DNA of 64,000 nt from an uncultured Actinomycetota bacterium. Its GTDB lineage: Bacteria; Actinomycetota; Humimicrobiia; Humimicrobiales; Humimicrobiaceae. The notes below the pieces were generated by a model. That model was given only the letters and a program-made list of their open reading frames with translations, was not told where the DNA came from and ran no database searches. Where the stretch lies: the NCBI GenBank assembly GCA_964561115.1, contig CAZLOE010000003.1, positions 2,691 through 66,690 of the forward strand, read 5' to 3'. Numbering within the stretch: the stretch's first letter is position 1; each line of letters begins with the position of its first letter. The position numbers and the translations under genes are program-made. Below, piece by piece: positions 139 through 64,000 of this stretch.

Positions 139-1134
139 CTAAAGCAATTCCTTTATCATTTCCTTCATTATGCTGACTGCCTTCGGATGTCTCATCACCA
201 AAATATTAGAACCAGAAAGCAGCAGACTCATACATGATATTGTCTCCCAGTTTATTCCTCTTTCTTCCTGGTCACCCCACTCGGGATAATCTTTTTGACT
301 TTCTTTAACTTCTTTTACCTTCCAGATCTCAGGAGCAATATTATTTATAATCGGCATTTGAGTCATTTTATCATCCTGCATCAGCGCAGCTATTTTAAGT
401 CTCTCCATAGCAGAATAGCAGTATTCTAATCCATATCCCAGACCTGAACTTGCAGGGTCCATGACTATCCTGTCCGAAGATAATCCTAACTGGGTAAGTA
501 ATATGTTTAACTGCTTTGCAATATTTACATCAAGAGAGTTTACTGCCGCTAAATTATTGTTATAACCCATCGCTGCAGCCGCCGTGGTCTTATAATTGTC
601 CTCTTCCACCCAGCCCATTAAAATATTACTGTCTTTATTTTTTTCAGAGACTTTTTTCATCACCTCGGCGATTTTTTCCAGCGGGCCGGCTCCGTATACT
701 ATTAAAGGTTTTTCAATAGATTCCCTTACATTCTTGGATAGTTCAGCAGCATCTTCAGGGCTCATATCACCTTCATCAGGATTTATGCTGCTAAGATTTA
801 AGCATATGGCGTCAGCACCGTACTTACTGATACTTTTTTGGGCCCATTTTACAGGATCGTTAAAAACATCATCATAGTATTTGCTGACGGTCTCCGGCCA
901 ACCTTCAGGTTTCCTGTCATAGACCTCTATAGCAATTATGGGACTATTTGGTATCTCACCCTCAAAGACATAAAAGGGTAGAGCAGTATCTCCACCGACC
1001 TTAGTTTCCGTATCCCCTTTACCCAATTTAACTATATTTATTTTTCCGTTATATATGTTTTTCGGAACTTGAAAACTCAACCTTTCTCCACCTCTCTTCC
1101 GGTTAATAATTTTTGCCTGTCCAGGTAATATCAA
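139..1134 (-). CDS. acsD: CO dehydrogenase/acetyl-CoA synthase delta subunit (corrinoid Fe-S protein small subunit, TIM-barrel)
   Basis: 331 aa. The motifs GGDTALPF..FEGE, KWAQKSISKYGADAICLNL, NILMGWVEEDNYKT and VMDPASSGLGYGLEYCYSAMERLK match the AcsD/CdhD family. Confidence 0.8.
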   Translation of the reverse strand: MILPGQAKIINRKRGGERLSFQVPKNIYNGKINIVKLGKGDTETKVGGDTALPFYVFEGEIPNSPIIAIEVYDRKPEGWPETVSKYYDDVFNDPVKWAQKSISKYGADAICLNLSSINPDEGDMSPEDAAELSKNVRESIEKPLIVYGAGPLEKIAEVMKKVSEKNKDSNILMGWVEEDNYKTTAAAAMGYNNNLAAVNSLDVNIAKQLNILLTQLGLSSDRIVMDPASSGLGYGLEYCYSAMERLKIAALMQDDKMTQMPIINNIAPEIWKVKEVKESQKDYPEWGDQEERGINWETISCMSLLLSGSNILVMRHPKAVSIMKEMIKELL

Positions 1135-1345
1135 CCCAAAACAAATAATAATCTAACACATTTTATCATTTTCAATATAAAACTCCAGGTTATTTTAAAA
1201 TTTTTACGGGTCAAATAAATATTTAAAGATTTAAAATTAAACATTTGTGCATAAAGTGAACAATTTTCTATATTATATATTAAGACTTTCAAATTTCAAG
1301 TTATAAAACCAAGATTGTTTTCAGATTATGACCAGATTTTAAAGG

Positions 1346-2101
1346 CTAAAGTTTAAGTTTTTCTGTTATCTCTTTTGCCTGTTTTAGTGACAGGCTGTTC
1401 TTTGGGATATCAAATATGGACTTGCCGTCAATATCCATTTCATAAATGTTATCATCTATGTTTATGACGCCGAGCAGGTCAAGCTTATTTTCATCTATAT
1501 AATTTTTAAGCCTGTCGTCTAACTCTCCATCGATCCTGCATACTATCAGAAATATTTTTCCCGCATTGACATTTAATTCTCCTGCCAGATCCCTTATCCT
1601 TGAAGCAGTAAGTATCCCTTTTGGAGAAGGATCTGAGGTTATAAGGAGATAATCAACATCGCTTGTCGTCTTCCTGCTTAAGTGTTCCATACCTGCTTCG
1701 TTGTCCATAACGATATAATCATAATTGTCCTGAAGTACATCTATATATTTTTTAAAAAGATTATTAGCATAACAATAACAGCCGGGACCTTCTCCTCTTC
1801 CCATTACCAGCAGGTCAAATACTTTACCCTCGATTAGCGACTGGTGTATGTTCATCTCCACCATTTGATCCTTGTAAACACCCCCGGTCATCCGGGGTGC
1901 CTTTTTCTTAAAATCTTCCCTTATCATACCTATAGTATTTGAGACACTTACTCCCAGTAATTCATTTAGATTTGAATTGGGATCGGCATCCAGCGCCAGG
2001 ACAGAGCCTTTATTTTTTTCAACCAGGCTTCTTATAATAAGGCTCGCTGTAGTGGTCTTGCCCGTTCCGCCCTTACCGGCTAATGCTATCTTCATACTCA
2101 T
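1346..2101 (-). CDS. cooC: CO dehydrogenase nickel-insertion ATPase CooC/AcsF (MinD/ParA family)
   Basis: 251 aa. It has the deviant Walker A GKGGTGKTT near the N-terminus and lies between RACo and acsD. Confidence 0.8.
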   Translation of the reverse strand: MSMKIALAGKGGTGKTTTASLIIRSLVEKNKGSVLALDADPNSNLNELLGVSVSNTIGMIREDFKKKAPRMTGGVYKDQMVEMNIHQSLIEGKVFDLLVMGRGEGPGCYCYANNLFKKYIDVLQDNYDYIVMDNEAGMEHLSRKTTSDVDYLLITSDPSPKGILTASRIRDLAGELNVNAGKIFLIVCRIDGELDDRLKNYIDENKLDLLGVINIDDNIYEMDIDGKSIFDIPKNSLSLKQAKEITEKLKL

Positions 2102-2117
2102 TTATATTAAAACCTCT

Positions 2118-4070
2118 CTATTTAGCTCCTCTTTTTTTCTTACCCTTAAGTGAATAGATACTTTCCTCTACTGTTGGAAAATCCTTCATATCAGTGTAGG
2201 GAAGAAATAGGCCCGCCACATATCTTTCCATAAATTTCATATTTACGCTTAATTCAATATATGTGATATGCTCTGCTATTTTAGAGCTCTTTCTGTATTT
2301 ATTCTCAGAAAGCAGGCTCAGGTAAGCTCCTGTCACTGAAGTATTTCCCATAAAAAAATATTTATTGATATCTATATCGGGCAGCATTCCGATTACTACC
2401 GCATTTCTAATGTTAAGATGTTTTCCAAGCCCGCCTGCTATGTATATTTTCTTAAGGTCATATATGCTAAGGTCTACTTCTTCGAGGAGGGTTTTGACTC
2501 CGGCATAAATAGCCGCTTTTGCCCTGATCAAATTATTAATATCAACCTCACTTATATATATATCTTTTTTAGTTGCACTGTCACTGGCATTTACCAGCAC
2601 ATACTGACAATCACGTTCGACACATCTAAGGTATCGGTTTCCTATGTCCTTATTAAATTTACCCTTCCTGTCAATCACTCCCTTGAGGTATATCTCTCCT
2701 ATCATATCGATCAGCCCTGAGCCGCATATACCCCTGGGCTTGCCTCCGCCTATTACTCCTACCTTGCATTTATATGTCTTCTGGTCGATCGACACCCTTT
2801 CTATTGCTCCATCTACTGCTCTGATCCCGCATTTTACCCCTCCTCCTTCAAAAGCAGGACCCGCAGAACAGGAGCAACCCATCATCCATTCGGAGTTTCC
2901 CACTACCAGTTCACCGTTGGTTCCCAGATCCAAAAAAAGGGACAGTTCTTTATCCTCATACATCCCGGTTGCCAGAATACCTGATGATATATCCCCACCA
3001 AGATAACTTGCCACTCCCTGTATGCTGTAAACGTGAGCATTCTTTATATGTTTTATACCGATCTCTTTTGCAGTGGAATTTGAAAATTTATTGGCCACCG
3101 TGACATACGGCTCTTCTCTTATATATCTGGGAGGCACCCCGTAAAAAAGATGCATCATAGTAGAGTTACCTGAGACCATCACAGAGACAATACTGTCTAC
3201 ATCTACATTTGAACCTGCCAGCAGCTTTAAAATCAAATCATTGATTGAATCTAATATTACCTCTCTTAATTTAGCGAGACCGCCCTTTTTATTTGCATAT
3301 ACTATTCTGTTTATAATATCTTCGCCAAATCTTATCTGAGGATTGTATTCAGATTCTGAGCTGATTATTTTTCCATCAGCCAGATCTACCAGATATATTA
3401 CCAGCGATGTGGTTCCTATATCCAGTGCCAGACCGTAGCTTTTTTTGCCTGAACTGCCTGGCTGGATGTCTATAAGGGTGCTGTTTTCCTTATCCACAAT
3501 GACTGTGACCTTCCAATCCTTCTCTCTTAAAACCTGGGGCAGCTGCCTTATTATATGAATGGGTGCAGTACAATTTTCTATGCCCAGGTTTTCCCTGATG
3601 CTTTTCTTTAATCTGAACAGATCACTGGTCCCGTAACTTAGTGAAGGCTTCCTGATAGACATGGTCTCTTTTTTTATCCAGGGTTTTATTTCAACAGATA
3701 AAAATTCATCGCTGCTTATTCCGGAATATGATTTAGAATCGATATCGGCAAATCTCCCCTTTTCTATTTTAGCCTTTTCTTTTTTCTGCTTTGGTATCTC
3801 AACTATTATGTCACTCTGTACCTGGGACAGACATGAGAGCACAAAACCCGCCTTTTTTTGCTTCGGAGATATGAACTTGGATCTCTTGGTACTTACTTTG
3901 CCTTCTTTTATGCACACCTTACATCTTCCGCAGGTCCCTACACCTCCGCATGACGAATCGATATGGATCCCGCTGTCAAGTATAGCCTGCTTCAGATTAT
4001 AATTTTGGGGGACTTTTATGGATTTGCCGCTTGGAATGAACTTTATCAAATATTTTTTTGGGTTGTTCAT
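2118..4070 (-). CDS. corrinoid activation/regeneration protein (RACo/AcsV): N-terminal 2Fe-2S ferredoxin domain plus ASKHA ATPase domain
   Basis: 650 aa. An N-terminal plant-type ferredoxin Cys cluster (SSCGGVGTCGRCKV) is followed by a large acetate/sugar-kinase-like domain. It sits beside cooC and acsD. Confidence 0.75.
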   Translation of the reverse strand: MNNPKKYLIKFIPSGKSIKVPQNYNLKQAILDSGIHIDSSCGGVGTCGRCKVCIKEGKVSTKRSKFISPKQKKAGFVLSCLSQVQSDIIVEIPKQKKEKAKIEKGRFADIDSKSYSGISSDEFLSVEIKPWIKKETMSIRKPSLSYGTSDLFRLKKSIRENLGIENCTAPIHIIRQLPQVLREKDWKVTVIVDKENSTLIDIQPGSSGKKSYGLALDIGTTSLVIYLVDLADGKIISSESEYNPQIRFGEDIINRIVYANKKGGLAKLREVILDSINDLILKLLAGSNVDVDSIVSVMVSGNSTMMHLFYGVPPRYIREEPYVTVANKFSNSTAKEIGIKHIKNAHVYSIQGVASYLGGDISSGILATGMYEDKELSLFLDLGTNGELVVGNSEWMMGCSCSAGPAFEGGGVKCGIRAVDGAIERVSIDQKTYKCKVGVIGGGKPRGICGSGLIDMIGEIYLKGVIDRKGKFNKDIGNRYLRCVERDCQYVLVNASDSATKKDIYISEVDINNLIRAKAAIYAGVKTLLEEVDLSIYDLKKIYIAGGLGKHLNIRNAVVIGMLPDIDINKYFFMGNTSVTGAYLSLLSENKYRKSSKIAEHITYIELSVNMKFMERYVAGLFLPYTDMKDFPTVEESIYSLKGKKKRGAK

Positions 4071-15922: not shown

Positions 15923-16309
15923 TCAATTCCATTTGATTTCTCTGGAATCTTTCCACAATCTTTCAAGCTTGTAATATTCCCTTAACTCATTGGTAAAAAT
16001 ATGAACAACAAAATCATCATAATCAGCAAGTATCCAGTTTCCCTCTGAAAGCCCGCACACATTAATAGGATAAAGTTTGTCTTTCTTCAGATTTATATAT
16101 ATATCTTCCTGTATTCTTCTGGTCAATCTGGTATTTCTTGCACTGATTATTATGAAGTAATCGGTGATGATCAATCTGGACCTCATGTCCAGTATTTTTA
16201 TATAATCCGCTTTCTTCTCATCAGCTATTCTGGCGACTTTCTTTACTATTGCTTTTATGTCTACCACTTTCGGCTTAGGGTTTCTGCCCTTTACTATTTT
16301 CTTTATCAC
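15923..16309 (-). CDS. rsfS: ribosome silencing factor RsfS (Iojap family)
   Basis: 128 aa, in the conserved nadD-yqeK-rsfS operon position. Confidence 0.8.
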   Translation of the reverse strand: MIKKIVKGRNPKPKVVDIKAIVKKVARIADEKKADYIKILDMRSRLIITDYFIIISARNTRLTRRIQEDIYINLKKDKLYPINVCGLSEGNWILADYDDFVVHIFTNELREYYKLERLWKDSREIKWN

Positions 16310-45909: not shown

Positions 45910-45996
45910 TGGTGCGAGAGAGGGGACTTGAACCCCTACAGGTGTTACCCCACTAGATCCTAAGTCTAGCGCGTCTGCCAATTCCGCCACTCTCGC
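45910..45996 (-). tRNA. tRNA-Leu (anticodon TAG), encoded CCA
   Basis: 87 nt cloverleaf with acceptor GCGAGAG/CTCTCGC, anticodon loop CTTAGGA, a long variable arm and a 3' CCA. Confidence 0.9.
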
Positions 45997-46001
45997 ATAA
46001 G

Positions 46002-46077
46002 TGGTGAGCCGTACAGGGATCGAACCTGTGACACCCTGATTAAGAGTCAGGTGCTCTACCAGCTGAGCTAACGGCCC
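46002..46077 (-). tRNA. tRNA-Lys (anticodon CTT), encoded CCA
   Basis: 76 nt with anticodon stem CCTGA/TCAGG, loop CTCTTAA and T-loop TTCGATC. Confidence 0.85.
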
Positions 46078-46092
46078 ACCTATATATAAATC

Positions 46093-46211
46093 TGGCACGC
46101 CTGGAGGGATTCGTTCTTTCGTCTCGCTTTGCTCGCTGCAGAGACGCGAGCTCCCTCATCTTCGATTCAGTCCGCTCTTTCGAATCCTGAAAACATGCCA
46201 CCGGCATGTTT
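46093..46211 (-). ncRNA. tRNA-3'-end-linked structured element, copy B
   Basis: 46093-46113 is an exact copy of tRNA-Arg(TCG) positions 46257-46277. The same conserved scaffold follows, ending in a hairpin at 46191-46211. Confidence 0.6.
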
Positions 46212-46256
46212 CCCCTGCCTACCTTGAACGTACCTATCGTTTTATATATATAAATA

Positions 46257-46333
46257 TGGCACGCCTGGAGGGATTCGAACCCCCGACGCACGGATTCGAA
46301 GTCCGACGCTCTATCCACCTGAGCTACAGGCGC
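46257..46333 (-). tRNA. tRNA-Arg (anticodon TCG), encoded CCA
   Basis: 77 nt with anticodon loop CTTCGAA and T-loop TTCGAAT. Confidence 0.8.
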
Positions 46334-46345
46334 AGGGTTTAAATA

Positions 46346-46422
46346 TGGGGTGAGAAACGGGGATCGAACCCGCGACCCCAGGATCCACAATCCTGTGCTC
46401 TACCAGCTGAGCTATTCTCACC
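46346..46422 (-). tRNA. tRNA-His (anticodon GTG), genome-encoded G-1 and CCA
   Basis: Anticodon loop TTGTGGA. An extra 5' G pairs with C73 to give the 8-bp acceptor stem typical of tRNA-His. Confidence 0.85.
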
Positions 46423-46489
46423 ATTTAATACTTTAAAAAACAAATTCTTACAGTTACATTACCCGATATTATTCCAAAACTTACAAATA

Positions 46490-46566
<77 letters not shown>

Positions 46567-46813
46567 AAAAACCCTAATATAATAATTATTATAGCAAATA
46601 AAATTTTATTATTAAAAAATGCCGGCAGTCCCTAAACCTCTCAAAACCAGATTAATACTTTAGTTAATATCATACCATAAGTCAAGGACGGTTTTAGCCG
46701 TAAAAAAATCTAAAACGGTTTCAAAATGCTATATCTGGCTTCTTTTATCTCATGCTTTAAACATGATAAAATAAATCAGTTAGACAGTATTAAAAACTAC
46801 GACAGGAGAACAA

Positions 46814-47101
46814 ATGGACTTTCTTATTGCCGCTTCTTCAACTATGATGACATCGCTACTGGTACTCTTTACTACAGTAGTTTTTTGTTTCATAATGCTT
46901 GGTTTTTTAATCAGTCTGGGATTGTTTGTACTGTGGATCATTACTCTTATAGATTGCGTAAGGAGAGATAATAAGGATTTTGTCTTCGGGGGCAAGGACG
47001 CTAAAGTACTCTGGATCCTTCTTCTGATCTTTTTCCGCCAAATCGCACCTATCATCTACTATTTACTTATAATGTATAAAAAAGGGGGGAAACCTAAATA
47101 G
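46814..47101 (+). CDS. small membrane protein, PLD-nuclease N-terminal (PLDc_N) domain family
   Basis: 95 aa with two TM helices flanking the motif WIITLIDCVRRDNKDF..GKDAKVLWILL. It is on the opposite strand inside the tRNA cluster. Confidence 0.55.
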   Translation: MDFLIAASSTMMTSLLVLFTTVVFCFIMLGFLISLGLFVLWIITLIDCVRRDNKDFVFGGKDAKVLWILLLIFFRQIAPIIYYLLIMYKKGGKPK

Positions 47102-47105
47102 AAAA

Positions 47106-47182
47106 TGGAGCGGGAAACGGGATTCGAACCCGCGACCCTCAGCTTGGAAGGCTGACGCTCTAGCCAACTGAGCTATTCCCGC
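47106..47182 (-). tRNA. tRNA-Gly (anticodon TCC), encoded CCA
   Basis: Acceptor GCGGGAA and anticodon loop CTTCCAA. Confidence 0.9.
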
Positions 47183-47187
47183 TCAAA

Positions 47188-47266
47188 TGGTCGGGGTGAG
47201 AGGATTTGAACCTCCGACCCCCTGCTCCCAAAGCAGGTGCGCTAAACCAAACTGCGCTACACCCCG
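47188..47266 (-). tRNA. tRNA-Pro (anticodon TGG), encoded CCA
   Basis: Acceptor CGGGGTG/CACCCCG, anticodon loop TTTGGGA with G37. Confidence 0.85.
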
Positions 47267-52195: not shown

Positions 52196-52543
52196 TGGTG
52201 GAGGCGGCGGGAATCGAACCCGCGTCCGAAGATATTGACACCTAGATATCTACAAGCTTATTCCACATTTTAATCTTACTTTTTCACTCGCATGGACGCG
52301 ATTAAAAAAGCCAGCCCGCATAAAATTTCCCCCGGTACTGCTGCAGGCATATCATACCGGAGTATCCTGCTAACCGGCGCCTGTCGAAAAGCACAGGAGA
52401 CCTTTCGCAGACGTAGCAGCTTAAATTAAGCTGCTAATGCTAATTTATTATTAGCGTTTATTTATAGTTCAGTTATTTACGAGTTCTGATACTCGACTTG
52501 CAATCCAAGCTCAACCTATCCCCGTCGAATCCAAGTCGCCCCC
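52196..52543 (-). ncRNA. ssrA: transfer-messenger RNA (tmRNA)
   Basis: The 5' end GGGGGCGACUUGGAUUCGACGGGG pairs with the 3' end ...CGCCUCCACCA, including a G3-U70 pair. T-arm GCGGGUUCGAUUCCCGC. Tag reading frame GCU AAU AAU AAA UUA GCA UUA GCA GCU UAA (ANNKLALAA). It lies immediately downstream of smpB. Confidence 0.9.
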
Positions 52544-57242: not shown

Positions 57243-58347
57243 TTACCCTTTGGATACTTTTTTTTCAAGAAAACCTCTTATCAGTTTATCTATATCACCG
57301 TCAAGCACTGACTGCACATCTCCAATCTCAATCCCTGTTCTGTGATCCTTGATCAACTGATACGGCTGAAGAACATAACTTCTTATTTGGTTCCCCCACC
57401 CTATTTCCTTCTTTTCTCCTCTGACTTTATTTATTTTCTCTATATTTTTTCTCTGCTCCAGCTCAAAAAGTTTTGACTTTAAGATCTGGATAGCAGTCTG
57501 CCTGTTTAGTATCTGGGATCTCTCATTCTGGCACTGTATTACAGTATTTGTTGGCATGTGCGTTATTCTGACAGCAGAATCAGTAACATTCACGTGCTGC
57601 CCACCGGCACTGCTGGACTTAAAAGTCTCTATCTTTAAGTCCTCTTTATTTATCTTTATATCAATATCCTTGTTTAAGAGCGGAATCACATCTACCAGGG
57701 TGAATGAAGTATGCCTTCTTTTAGATGAATCAAAAGGTGAAATCCTAACCAGTCTATGAATGCCTTTTTCTGATTTTAACAGCCCGTAAGCGTTTTTACC
57801 TTTTACGGTGAAAGTGACATTCTTTATTCCTGCTTCTTCACCTGCCTGATAATCATTAATAATATAAGAGAATTTCCTCTTATCCATCCACCTGGTATAC
57901 ATTCTAAACAGCATTTCAGCCCAATCCTGGGATTCTGTCCCTCCGGCTCCAGGATGAATAGTGACCACTGCAGGATAAGAATCATAATTACCGCTCAGCA
58001 GGACTTTTTCTTCCAGATCGCTTAATTTATTTTCTATATGGTAAAGATTTTCCACCAGTTCATTTTCCAGAGTTTTATCTTCCTCACTTTCCAGTATTTC
58101 TAGAGCCAGCTTGCAGTTTTCTGCTTTCTCTTCCAGGTTTTTTATACTTTCGATTATCTCGTTAAGATCATTGATCTCCTGGGAGATATTCTGTGCTTCT
58201 TCACGGTCGTCCCAGAAATTTTTTGAAAGGGTCTTATTACGAAGTTTTTCCAGCTTTGCAGCTTTATTATCTGTTTCAAAGACAGTCTTTCAGGAAAATA
58301 AGTTTCTTGGTTATTTTATCGAACTTTGACTTATGACCTTCTATCAT
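57243..58347 (-). CDS. prfB: peptide chain release factor 2, programmed +1 frameshift (join 58347..58279 and 58277..57243)
   Basis: ORF1 MIEGHKSKFDKITKKLIFLKDCL ends at CTT TGA (58281..58276). Shifting +1 after CTT gives ETDNKAAKLEKLRNKTLSKNFWDDREEAQ... joined in frame to the annotated 270-aa ORF. GGAGG lies 5 nt upstream of the ATG at 58347. The product is 367 aa. Confidence 0.85.
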
Positions 58348-61790: not shown

Positions 61791-62495
61791 TTATATTCCT
61801 CTGGCAAAAGTCAATAAATAAATTTTAGCCGCACCAGCTTTCTTTAAAACACTGGCAATCTCGTTCAAAGTACTACCTGTAGTCCAGACATCATCTACCA
61901 GCATCAGATTTTTCCTCCGGGTAAGGAGACAGTTCTTCACCTTAAATGCTTCTTTTATATTACTTTTTCTCTGTACAGAATCAAGTCCCTGCTGCTTTAG
62001 CACTTCCTTTACTCTCAATATATTCCCAGCAAAAGGTAACCTGATTGATTTTGACAATCCTCTGCATAAAACCTCCATATGTTCACCAGGTACCGTATCT
62101 ATGTAATCTATCTTTTCAAATTTATAGTTTTCAGTATAAGTCTTAATCAAAAAAGCAATTATAATTTCTTTTAAAGCATTTATCCTGCTGTATTTATATT
62201 TTGCGATAATTTTTTTTATCTTTCCTTTATATACAGCAAAACTCCTGTGCCTGTAAAACTTAAAATTTTTATCCCTGCAATAATTACATCCTCTGCTATC
62301 TGAATCATTTAGGAATAACGGCCTGCCGCAGTATCTGCATATTTTATTTTCTATTTTTTCGATATCAGACGCGCACTCCCGACAGAGTAATTCAAAGCTG
62401 ATTTTTCCGCAAACCGCACATATGGGTGGAATGATAATATCTTTAAAAATATCAGTCAAATTTCTATTATTTTTACCTGTTACTTTAGGTATCAA
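61791..62495 (-). CDS. comFC: ComF family protein (ComFC; zinc ribbon plus phosphoribosyltransferase domain)
   Basis: 234 aa with an N-terminal CxxC...CxxC ribbon and the PRT motif [14 protein letters not shown]. Confidence 0.8.
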
Positions 62496-63609
62496 TATCG
62501 ATTATTTCATTGGACATAACTTTTACACTTGGATGGATTTTTATTCCATCCTTAATAACGCTTCTGGAACCTATAACCGCTTTTTCCAGAATCGAAGCCT
62601 TATCTTTTATCTTTGTATTATAACCTATAATAGCTCCTATCAGAGAGGCATCCTTTCCTATATAACCGCTTCCCCATTTTATTCCTCTATACAGAACTGC
62701 CCTCTCATCTACTATAGTATTATTTCCCAAAATAATGGGACCAAAAAGTTTTGCACCTTTCTTTATGGTGCAATTGTCTCCGATACATACCGGAGGAGTT
62801 ATCACGACACCTTCCTGGATCTTACAATTCTTCCCCACCCAGACTCCATCTTTTATTTCCTTTCCGGGAATATCAACCTTTACCTTTCCTTCAAGTGCAT
62901 CAAAATTACCCTGCTGATATTCATCCAGACCACCGACATCATTCCAATACTGATTATGCTGGTAGCCGTAATATTTAATATTCTTCTTTAACAGATCGGG
63001 AAAAAGATCCTTTCCGAAATCGTAAAATTTTCCCTTGGCAGGTAAATAATCAAATATCTCCGGCTCAAAAATATATATTCCGCTGTTTGCAAGATTTGAC
63101 TTTGCCTTTCCACTCAATGGTTTTTCCTGGAAACCTCTTATCCTTTTATCTTCATCCAGCAATACTACACCGTACTTTGAAGTATCTTCTACTTCAGTTA
63201 AGACTATTGTGGCTATACCGCCTTTCTGCTTATGAAATCTAAACACTCTGGTCAAATCAATGTCAGTCAGAGCATCGCCGCTTATTACCATAAAGGTATT
63301 GTTTTCAAAAAAATCTTCTACATTATTTACTCCTCCTGCGGTGCCCAGCAGCTCTTCCTCATATGAATAAACAATGTTTATTTTCCATCTTGATCCGTCA
63401 CCAAAATAGTTTTTTATCTCTTCCGGATACCAGTGCAGATTACAGACAATATCTGTAAATTTATGTTTGACCAGAAGTCTTATAATATGCTCCATAACCG
63501 GCCTGTTGACTATAGGCGCCATTGGCTTTGATATTAAGTCTGTAAGCGGCCTAAGCCTTGTTCCAAGACCTGCTGCTAATACTATTGCCTTTTTATTTTT
63601 TATTATAAT
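62485..63609 (-). CDS. sugar-phosphate nucleotidyltransferase with C-terminal left-handed beta-helix (eIF2B gamma/epsilon-like); non-AUG start
   Basis: The ORF-track ATG at 63522 is internal. Upstream in frame reads ...I I K N K K A I V L A A G L G T R L R P L T with no ATG/GTG/TTG after a TGA stop. AAGGAG (63621..63616) lies 6 nt upstream of the ATT at 63609. The protein has an NTP-transferase fold followed by hexapeptide repeats. Confidence 0.7.
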   Translation of the reverse strand: MIIKNKKAIVLAAGLGTRLRPLTDLISKPMAPIVNRPVMEHIIRLLVKHKFTDIVCNLHWYPEEIKNYFGDGSRWKINIVYSYEEELLGTAGGVNNVEDFFENNTFMVISGDALTDIDLTRVFRFHKQKGGIATIVLTEVEDTSKYGVVLLDEDKRIRGFQEKPLSGKAKSNLANSGIYIFEPEIFDYLPAKGKFYDFGKDLFPDLLKKNIKYYGYQHNQYWNDVGGLDEYQQGNFDALEGKVKVDIPGKEIKDGVWVGKNCKIQEGVVITPPVCIGDNCTIKKGAKLFGPIILGNNTIVDERAVLYRGIKWGSGYIGKDASLIGAIIGYNTKIKDKASILEKAVIGSRSVIKDGIKIHPSVKVMSNEIIDIDT

Positions 63610-63628
63610 TATGCACTCCTTATTTTGT

Positions 63629-64000
63629 TTATTTCCTGCTCTTAAAGATCCTGCTGATATTCTGTTTGTAAGGAGGGTAAATCAATTCTTTTTCAGTTAT
63701 GATTGCAGTTATATTATTAGCTGGCGTTACATCAAAAGCCGGATTCTTTACCGCCATAAATTCTGGAATAATAATTTTTCCCAGGACTTCCCTGACTTCC
63801 CTTTCATTTCTATGTTCTATAGGAATATTATCCCCGCTTTCCATTTTTATATCAACAGTTGAGATCGGAGCAGCAACATAGAAAGGTATTTTAAAATACT
63901 TTGCAAGTATAGACAAGCTTAAAGTCCCTATTTTATTGGCCGTATCACCGTTTGAAGCTATTCTGTCCGCACCGACCAGAACTGCATCGACCTCTCCCCT
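63629..64000 (-). CDS. eIF2B alpha/beta/delta-family isomerase (MtnA-like), C-terminal part; gene continues off the right edge
   Basis: The frame stays open to position 64000. It reads ...GEVDAVLVGADRIASNGDTANKIGT...YFKIPFYVAAPISTVDIKMESGDNIPIEHRNEREV...NPAFDVTPANNITAIITEKELIYPPY, the conserved MtnA/eIF2B C-terminus. Confidence 0.75.
   Translation of the reverse strand, partial: RGEVDAVLVGADRIASNGDTANKIGTLSLSILAKYFKIPFYVAAPISTVDIKMESGDNIPIEHRNEREVREVLGKIIIPEFMAVKNPAFDVTPANNITAIITEKELIYPPYKQNISRIFKSRK

Follow-up and report, generated by a model that had tools for sequence, protein, structure and literature searches.

A 64,000-nucleotide (nt) window of DNA from an uncultured Actinomycetota bacterium of the family Humimicrobiaceae (class Candidatus Humimicrobiia; contig CAZLOE010000003.1; GC content 38%) carries on its minus strand a gene for a putative nucleoside diphosphate (NDP)-sugar pyrophosphorylase, and the reading frame of this gene offers no canonical start codon where the protein should begin. 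All coordinates given here are positions within this window (Table 1). In the 53 codons that follow the closing TGA at 63684 there is no ATG, GTG, TTG or CTG, as the initial annotation of the stretch had claimed and as a reading of the minus strand confirmed, and the first canonical codon is the ATG at 63522. The Shine-Dalgarno (SD) sequence AAGGAG is followed by TGCATA (6 nt), then by ATT (63609), ATA and ATA, and then by AAA AAT AAA AAG GCA, which agrees in every position and in spacing with the arrangement first noted. Near-cognate codons at SD-compatible spacing are therefore present, with ATT, ATA and ATA at 6, 9 and 12 nt past AAGGAG, and a further ATA (63612) sits just 3 nt past it. The only canonical triplets in the other two frames are GTG 63616, which lies inside the SD sequence and meets a stop after seven codons, and TTG 63566, so that a simple frameshift gives no alternative start. 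Folding of the AT-rich initiation region gives essentially no structure, with a minimum free energy of -2.6 kcal/mol over 81 nt, equal to that of the ATG allele described below.

The protein has 374 residues when it is read from ATT 63609 and 372-374 amino acids (aa) across the three candidate starts, and the alternative N-termini differ by zero to two Ile residues only. Judged by its predicted domains, which are a nucleotidyltransferase domain and, C-terminal to it, a left-handed beta-helix, the gene encodes an NDP-sugar pyrophosphorylase that resembles GDP-mannose pyrophosphorylases and CugP-type UDP-glucose pyrophosphorylases. The helix is matched by PF00132 in three stretches and by PF25084 on residues 255-358. 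The best match in the PDB is 8x7s, a UTP-glucose-1-phosphate uridylyltransferase, with an alignment that runs from residue 4 counted from ATA 63603, and the next matches are mannose-1-phosphate guanylyltransferases. Similarly, the NCBIfam profiles place the protein among the mannose-1-phosphate guanylyltransferase-like and related enzymes, the best being man1P_GTase (213 bits, where the cutoff is 440), with no equivalog cutoff reached.

The conserved N-terminus of this enzyme does lie upstream of the first ATG. With ATT 63609 as the first codon, profile position 1 of PF00483 falls on residue 7. The nucleotide-binding signature of sugar-phosphate nucleotidyltransferases, here GLGTRLRPLTDLISK, is encoded wholly before ATG 63522. 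The G-x-G-T-R-x-x-P-x-T signature and the Lys that follows it are present, and LAAGLGTRLRPLTDLISKP aligns with LAAGKGTRVRPITYTIPKP of 8x7s. Furthermore, all seven nucleotide differences in codons 2-27 between the window and an orthologue that is 94% identical (locus L001) are synonymous, and over the whole gene the two differ by 71 synonymous and 20 non-synonymous changes, with no disabling mutations in the open reading frame (ORF). Taken together, the profile and substitution evidence identifies the segment upstream of ATG 63522 as real coding sequence. Since no canonical codon precedes the GxGTRxxPxT motif, the full-length enzyme needs near-cognate initiation, and the forced AUU or AUA start proposed at the outset is upheld to the extent that no canonical codon is usable and a near-cognate ATH codon (H being A, C or T) behind AAGGAG is required.

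The original position of the start can be read from the homologues, which are named as Candidatus Hydromicrobium, Humimicrobiaceae or Actinomycetota metagenome-assembled genomes (MAGs). In an alignment of 120 sequences, a Met in one column starts about 105 (M-x-x-K-K-A-[MI]-V-L-A-A-G), and this column corresponds to ATA 63603 and not to ATT 63609. Seven loci that are 94-95% identical (L001-L007) have ATG at the codon homologous to ATA 63603; the start region reads AAGGAGTGCATGGTTATAATGAAG in L001-L004 and AAGGAGTATATGAATTATAATGAAA in L005-L007, where the first ATG is out of frame and only the second can be the conserved start. Across the orthologues the gene starts with ATG or GTG, ATG being found in the 12-13-nt position, and a non-canonical codon is not conserved among them. 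This bears on the proposal that the gene shares both geometry and codon with rplU, the window's gene for ribosomal protein bL21: the 6-nt spacing to ATT is approximately alike in the two, but the homologous start of the pyrophosphorylase is the ATA at 63603.

Two closely related loci from a metagenome scan show how the canonical codon was lost. In L093 (contig Ga0315547_1000013, 1470-1503; 99% amino-acid identity) the start region is AAGAAGTGCATAATTATA-ATG-AAAAAT, and this ATG allele carries the same upstream ATA ATT ATA as the window, while L118 (Ga0315549_1000562; 100% identity) has the window's ATA. With L001 and L005 taken as outgroups, the window lineage proves to be the one that changed at codon 1, from G to A. 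Because L093, at 99% identity, retains ATG together with the same upstream codons, the comparison shows a recent, strain-level ATG-to-ATA substitution at 63603. Moreover, as the ATG allele already has the ATT and ATA codons ahead of its start, ATT 63609 belongs to a pre-existing 5' leader and is not a start that was selected or evolved for this role.

The window's start sequence AAGGAGTGCATAATTATAATAAAAAAT, a start region of 27 nt, recurs unchanged in three further assemblies that stem from different runs or samples, namely L118 (JGI), L008 (SRR9707468) and L009 (SRR8557270), which excludes a sequencing error. L008 additionally has GCC for GCA at codon 6, a synonymous difference, and is hence a distinct strain. 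Besides the start codon, the window lineage has acquired two non-synonymous changes, both K-to-R, and one synonymous change. Two accounts of the substitution were considered and rejected. Compensatory strengthening of the SD sequence in the ATA allele fails because AAGGAG is ancestral and the derived AAGAAG belongs to the ATG allele L093. AT-biased drift as the cause fails because the gene has equal GC and GC3 in the window, L093, L001 and L005; the other window-derived changes in the gene are A-to-G.

A possible parallel was found in the P0023/P0027 lineage (L011/L012 1960-2003; 83% identical), where TGA ATT ATT ATC stands right behind AGGAAG and the first ATG is 10 codons downstream, without an SD sequence. 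The canonical start may have been lost here a second time, independently, although the case is ambiguous because that ATG still precedes the GxG motif. P0110 (351 aa) was also considered as a parallel case and is uninformative, as its contig ends 20 nt upstream.

Table 1. Coordinates of the features of the pyrophosphorylase locus and of two further genes of the window
Feature	Position	Strand	Remark
In-frame TGA stop closing the frame upstream	63684-63682	minus	Sequence reading
TAA stop of upstream gene, PF01008 IF-2B / MtnA-like	63631-63629	minus	Other frame; Pfam of orthologous neighbour
SD sequence AAGGAG	63621-63616	minus	Same in L001-L007, hence ancestral; AAGAAG in L093
ATT, candidate start of the initial annotation	63609-63607	minus	6 nt past SD, best spacing; also present in leader of L093
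ATA, second candidate start	63606-63604	minus	9 nt past SD, good spacing
ATA at ancestral start position	63603-63601	minus	12 nt past SD; ATG in L093 and L001-L007
NTP_transferase domain PF00483	63591-62902	minus	Profile positions 1-240 of 245, residues 7-236, E = 1.4e-53
Codons for GLGTRLRPLTDLISK, nucleotide-binding signature	63570-63526	minus	Wholly upstream of ATG 63522
First canonical codon ATG, internal Met28	63522-63520	minus	No SD in front; start chosen by gene callers
C-terminal left-handed beta-helix, hexapeptide repeats PF00132 and PF25084	62856-62524	minus	Pfam
Downstream ComF-like gene (DZR_2/phosphoribosyltransferase)	TTG start 62495	minus	11-nt overlap with pyrophosphorylase ORF (62485-62495)
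Pyrophosphorylase TAA stop	62487-62485	minus	Sequence reading
prfB (RF2)	57243-58347	minus	Frame 0 ends CTT 58281-58279, TGA 58278-58276; +1 frame matches profile 14-352
rplU (bL21)	SD GGAGG 26886-26882; ATT 26875-26873; stop 26557-26555	minus	Only possible start is ATT, 6 nt past SD

The ATT start that had been proposed for rplU proved to be real, and its conservation throughout the clade is a stronger and more notable result than the pyrophosphorylase case. The stop-to-stop ORF is FIESRRRIKIYAIITSGGKQYK, position 1 of the NCBIfam L21 profile is the Tyr directly after ATT 26875, and no further canonical codon occurs in frame until a Met at about residue 64 of 106 aa. A scan of GTDB species representatives gave 46 Humimicrobiia-type loci (L013-L058), with L21 identities from 90% down to 61%. 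The codon for residue 1 is ATT in 45 of these species and ATA in the remaining one, and in all 46 it is preceded, at a distance of 5-6 nt, by GGAGG or a sequence close to it (AGGAG, GGGGG). Synonymous sites next to the start vary freely (GCG/GCA/GCT, ATA/GTA/TTA, ACA/ACC/ACT), and the outgroups in the same scan (Companilactobacillus, Limosilactobacillus and Armatimonadia) have ATG. A single T-to-G change would give ATG, yet none of the 46 lineages has it, so that the weak codon of rplU appears to be selected, as at infC, and the lack of conversion suggests an undescribed translational control of bL21.

The promoter of rplU, TTGACA-N17/18-TAATAT, is conserved in most of 26 aligned loci, and neither a conserved leader RNA structure nor an Rfam family was found at rplU or at the pyrophosphorylase gene. 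A literature search returned no paper describing the AUU start of rplU or translation in Humimicrobiia. The database L21 calls in the clade (P0121-P0220) range from 83 to 128 aa, being cut at an internal GTG or ATG or extended upstream, and the ATT start is taken in just part of the NCBI entries (104-106 aa, MYAV.../MIYAI...). As judged from these comparisons, rplU and the pyrophosphorylase gene represent different phenomena, a conserved and apparently selected ATT in the one and a recent strain-level ATA in the other.

For a census of the window, stop-to-stop ORFs were listed with their first canonical codons and 20 ORFs were profiled. Forced non-canonical starts were found in 2 of about 58 genes, rplU and the pyrophosphorylase gene, which is far above chance against the background of about 0.05% in well-annotated or model genomes (bioRxiv 10.1101/063800). 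In addition, 29 window gene families were compared with the relatives' loci in about 700 gene-by-species comparisons, where only rplU has a conserved non-canonical start and rsfS has a non-canonical one in a single sublineage. There, codon 4 of rsfS is ATA, preceded by GGGAGTGA, in L044 (8038-8553), L045 (19952-20314) and L046 (10993-11562), and in L045 the 120 codons present include no ATG, GTG or TTG; the orthologue in the window (15923-16309) starts with GTG. Near-cognate starts thus recur in the clade well above the level of model genomes while remaining rare, and near-cognate initiation appears to work there. The suggestion that AUU initiation is more than occasional is only weakly supported by two forced genes in the window and a single conserved family among 29.

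A third forced case in the window was sought and rejected. The candidates clpP (SD sequence and CTG 44237), an LCP gene (18087) and csp (61788) had been flagged because their leaders are conserved or because they overlap the gene before them, and all have a normal ATG or GTG. Similarly, prfB is not a start-less gene: it has a classical programmed +1 frameshift and starts at ATG 58347, with no obvious internal SD sequence ahead of the shift site. None of infC, rpmI, rplT or a tRNA-fMet gene is present in the window and the relatives' sequence examined.

We consider it reasonably likely that the pyrophosphorylase gene lost its ATG and that the full-length enzyme is still made from AUU or AUA behind an intact SD sequence. 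The ancestral ATG at 63603, 12 nt past AAGGAG, became ATA in the window lineage through a single G-to-A transition, after which fMet-tRNA would initiate at AUU 63609, AUA 63606 or AUA 63603, in an unstructured, AT-rich region. Compared with ATG, initiation there might yield between a few percent and about 10%. In E. coli, near-cognate codons yield 1-2% of AUG (bioRxiv 10.1101/063800), in S. aureus AUA and AUU yield about 10% of the AUG level (PMC13009471), and an AUG-to-AUA change in T4 rIIB lowers translation by about 85% (cited in PMC5499595). The ATA allele is thus probably still translated, with reduced output. Spacing would favour the codons at 63609 and 63606 and homology the one at 63603, and ATT 63609 is a plausible present-day start owing to its 6-nt spacing.

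Several observations weigh against this explanation. The SD spacings of the confident genes in the window are broad and strong SD sequences are few, so they cannot pick among the three ATH codons. The mutation is very recent, which makes the intact ORF no proof of continued translation, and the substitutions in the window lineage are too few to show purifying selection. Moreover, L093 has a derived change that weakens its SD sequence, AAGGAG to AAGAAG, which could mean relaxed selection on expression of this gene. Since both sister alleles carry mutations that lower initiation, the pair would be compatible with relaxed or with negative selection on the expression level.

These points lend themselves to a different account, in which the ATG-to-ATA change effectively silenced the gene, the ORF being intact only through the youth of the mutation, and no physiologically useful enzyme is made. 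Such a nascent null allele is possible, though we regard it as unlikely. It would accord with a change confined to the strain level, with ATG kept in the 99%-identical L093, and with the low yield of 1-2% at E. coli near-cognate codons (bioRxiv 10.1101/063800); the independently weakened SD sequence of L093 fits relaxed selection on expression, and the few substitutions since the mutation show no bias to synonymous sites. However, the window shares the ATA allele with three other assemblies, one of which has since gained a further synonymous change, so that this allele has persisted and spread, and no frameshift or stop codon has entered the ORF. The SD sequence is intact and the initiation region unstructured, and the clade would appear from its gene sequences to initiate a ribosomal protein at AUU and RsfS at AUA.

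That last point raises the question of whether AUU and AUA might be efficient and routine starts throughout Humimicrobiia, for example through an altered IF3 or initiator tRNA, in which case the ATG-to-ATA change would have been nearly neutral. Forced near-cognate starts in three gene families among the roughly 700 gene-by-species comparisons, together with rplU in 46 of 46 species, would fit such relaxed start fidelity, as would a rate roughly ten times the 0.05% or so of model genomes (bioRxiv 10.1101/063800). Nevertheless, relatives overwhelmingly have ATG or GTG at the pyrophosphorylase gene, 56 of the approximately 58 genes in the window have canonical starts, and the ATT of rplU is strictly conserved and does not drift among ATG, ATT and ATA. 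Conservation of this kind implies selection for a weak codon, and hence that AUU is not equivalent to AUG, which leaves general relaxation improbable. A more restricted idea is that Humimicrobiia keep an initiation regime in which weak AUU or AUA starts serve as a selected regulatory device, in bL21 (46 of 46), in RsfS of one sublineage and possibly in other ribosome-related genes tied to IF3 or initiation fidelity, and in which a raised tolerance of near-cognate starts in general would allow ordinary enzyme genes, the pyrophosphorylase among them, to lose the ATG while the gene itself persists. We offer this speculatively and hold it to be rather doubtful.

The possibility that translation begins at the internal ATG 63522, with the 27-29 codons upstream as a non-coding leader and a functional product of 345 aa, is highly improbable. 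This ATG is the only canonical start and was picked by the automatic callers in two Logan assemblies, where the resulting 345-aa call is without the catalytic motif. The product would lack roughly the first 22 profile positions of PF00483, and with them GxGTRxxPxT and the Lys behind it; the upstream segment, which the initial annotation had allowed might prove non-coding, is encoded by all homologues and its substitutions are purely synonymous, and ATG 63522 has no preceding SD sequence. Single-base errors do occur in assemblies of uncultured organisms, presumably including this metagenome assembly, but an artefact that hides a true ATG or a frameshift is scarcely credible given the 27-nt start region shared with L118, L008 and L009, the synonymous base by which L008 differs elsewhere and the want of any usable canonical start in the other frames.

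The near-cognate starts of this clade matter for annotation. Standard gene callers shorten the pyrophosphorylase to 345 aa, which is catalytically meaningless, and metabolic pipelines, as well as phylogenomic ones in which bL21 serves as a marker, are affected in Humimicrobiia, which amounts to a systematic annotation problem. L093 with ATG and the window with ATA form a natural pair of alleles of the same species, on which near-cognate initiation could be measured in a deep-branching actinobacterial lineage. Furthermore, the AUU of rplU would be a second example of a selected weak start of the infC kind, in a core translation gene.

The neighbouring genes are closely packed around the pyrophosphorylase gene. 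The stop of the upstream MtnA-like gene lies 7 nt before the SD sequence, and the pair is therefore probably co-transcribed. Given the 11-nt overlap with the ComF-like gene downstream, lowered translation of the pyrophosphorylase could also lower that of the ComF-like gene through coupling. Elsewhere, the start of the window (139-4070, minus strand) holds Wood-Ljungdahl genes, namely those for AcsD (acetyl-CoA synthase delta subunit), which probably starts at TTG 1080, and AcsV (corrinoid activation protein). Seven tRNA genes (Leu, Lys, Arg, His, Arg, Gly and Pro) and a tmRNA gene with the tag ANNKLALAA lie at 45910-47266 and 52196-52543 on the minus strand, and the window has no tRNA-fMet gene.

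Known systems offer precedents for both genes. In E. coli, infC starts with AUU, is autoregulated by IF3 and has a start codon that is phylogenetically conserved and selected, and pcnB also has an AUU start. The genes considered here are like infC and pcnB in that a near-cognate codon behind an SD sequence is the sole start of a conserved protein. The likeness to infC extends in rplU to a codon that is conserved and, it appears, selected, whereas the start codon of the pyrophosphorylase gene is not conserved and its relatives have ATG. Conserved non-canonical starts with an extended SD sequence are also found in S. aureus and B. subtilis, in ccpN (AUA) and cvfC1 (AUU; PMC13009471). As in these genes, rplU has a strong SD sequence at proper spacing, GGAGG with a 5-6-nt spacer in 46 species, although the genes and the phylum are different.

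For the pyrophosphorylase, the phage T4 rIIB AUG-to-AUA mutant (PMC5499595) has undergone the same single-base transition at its start codon, and translation of rIIB is kept but cut; however, this is a temperature-sensitive laboratory mutant of a phage gene. S. aureus citZ is a very near parallel: it starts with AUA in the NCTC 8325 lineage only, and in reporters this codon reaches about 10% of the level seen with AUG (Ribo-Ret, PMC13009471). Both citZ and the pyrophosphorylase are housekeeping enzyme genes with AUA in one strain lineage and a good SD sequence, and the expected consequence is the same. They differ in that AUA initiation was mapped experimentally in citZ, whereas the pyrophosphorylase is known from sequence and has three adjacent ATH codons in competition. 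With precedents in E. coli and S. aureus, the loss of ATG at the strain level is a known kind of event.

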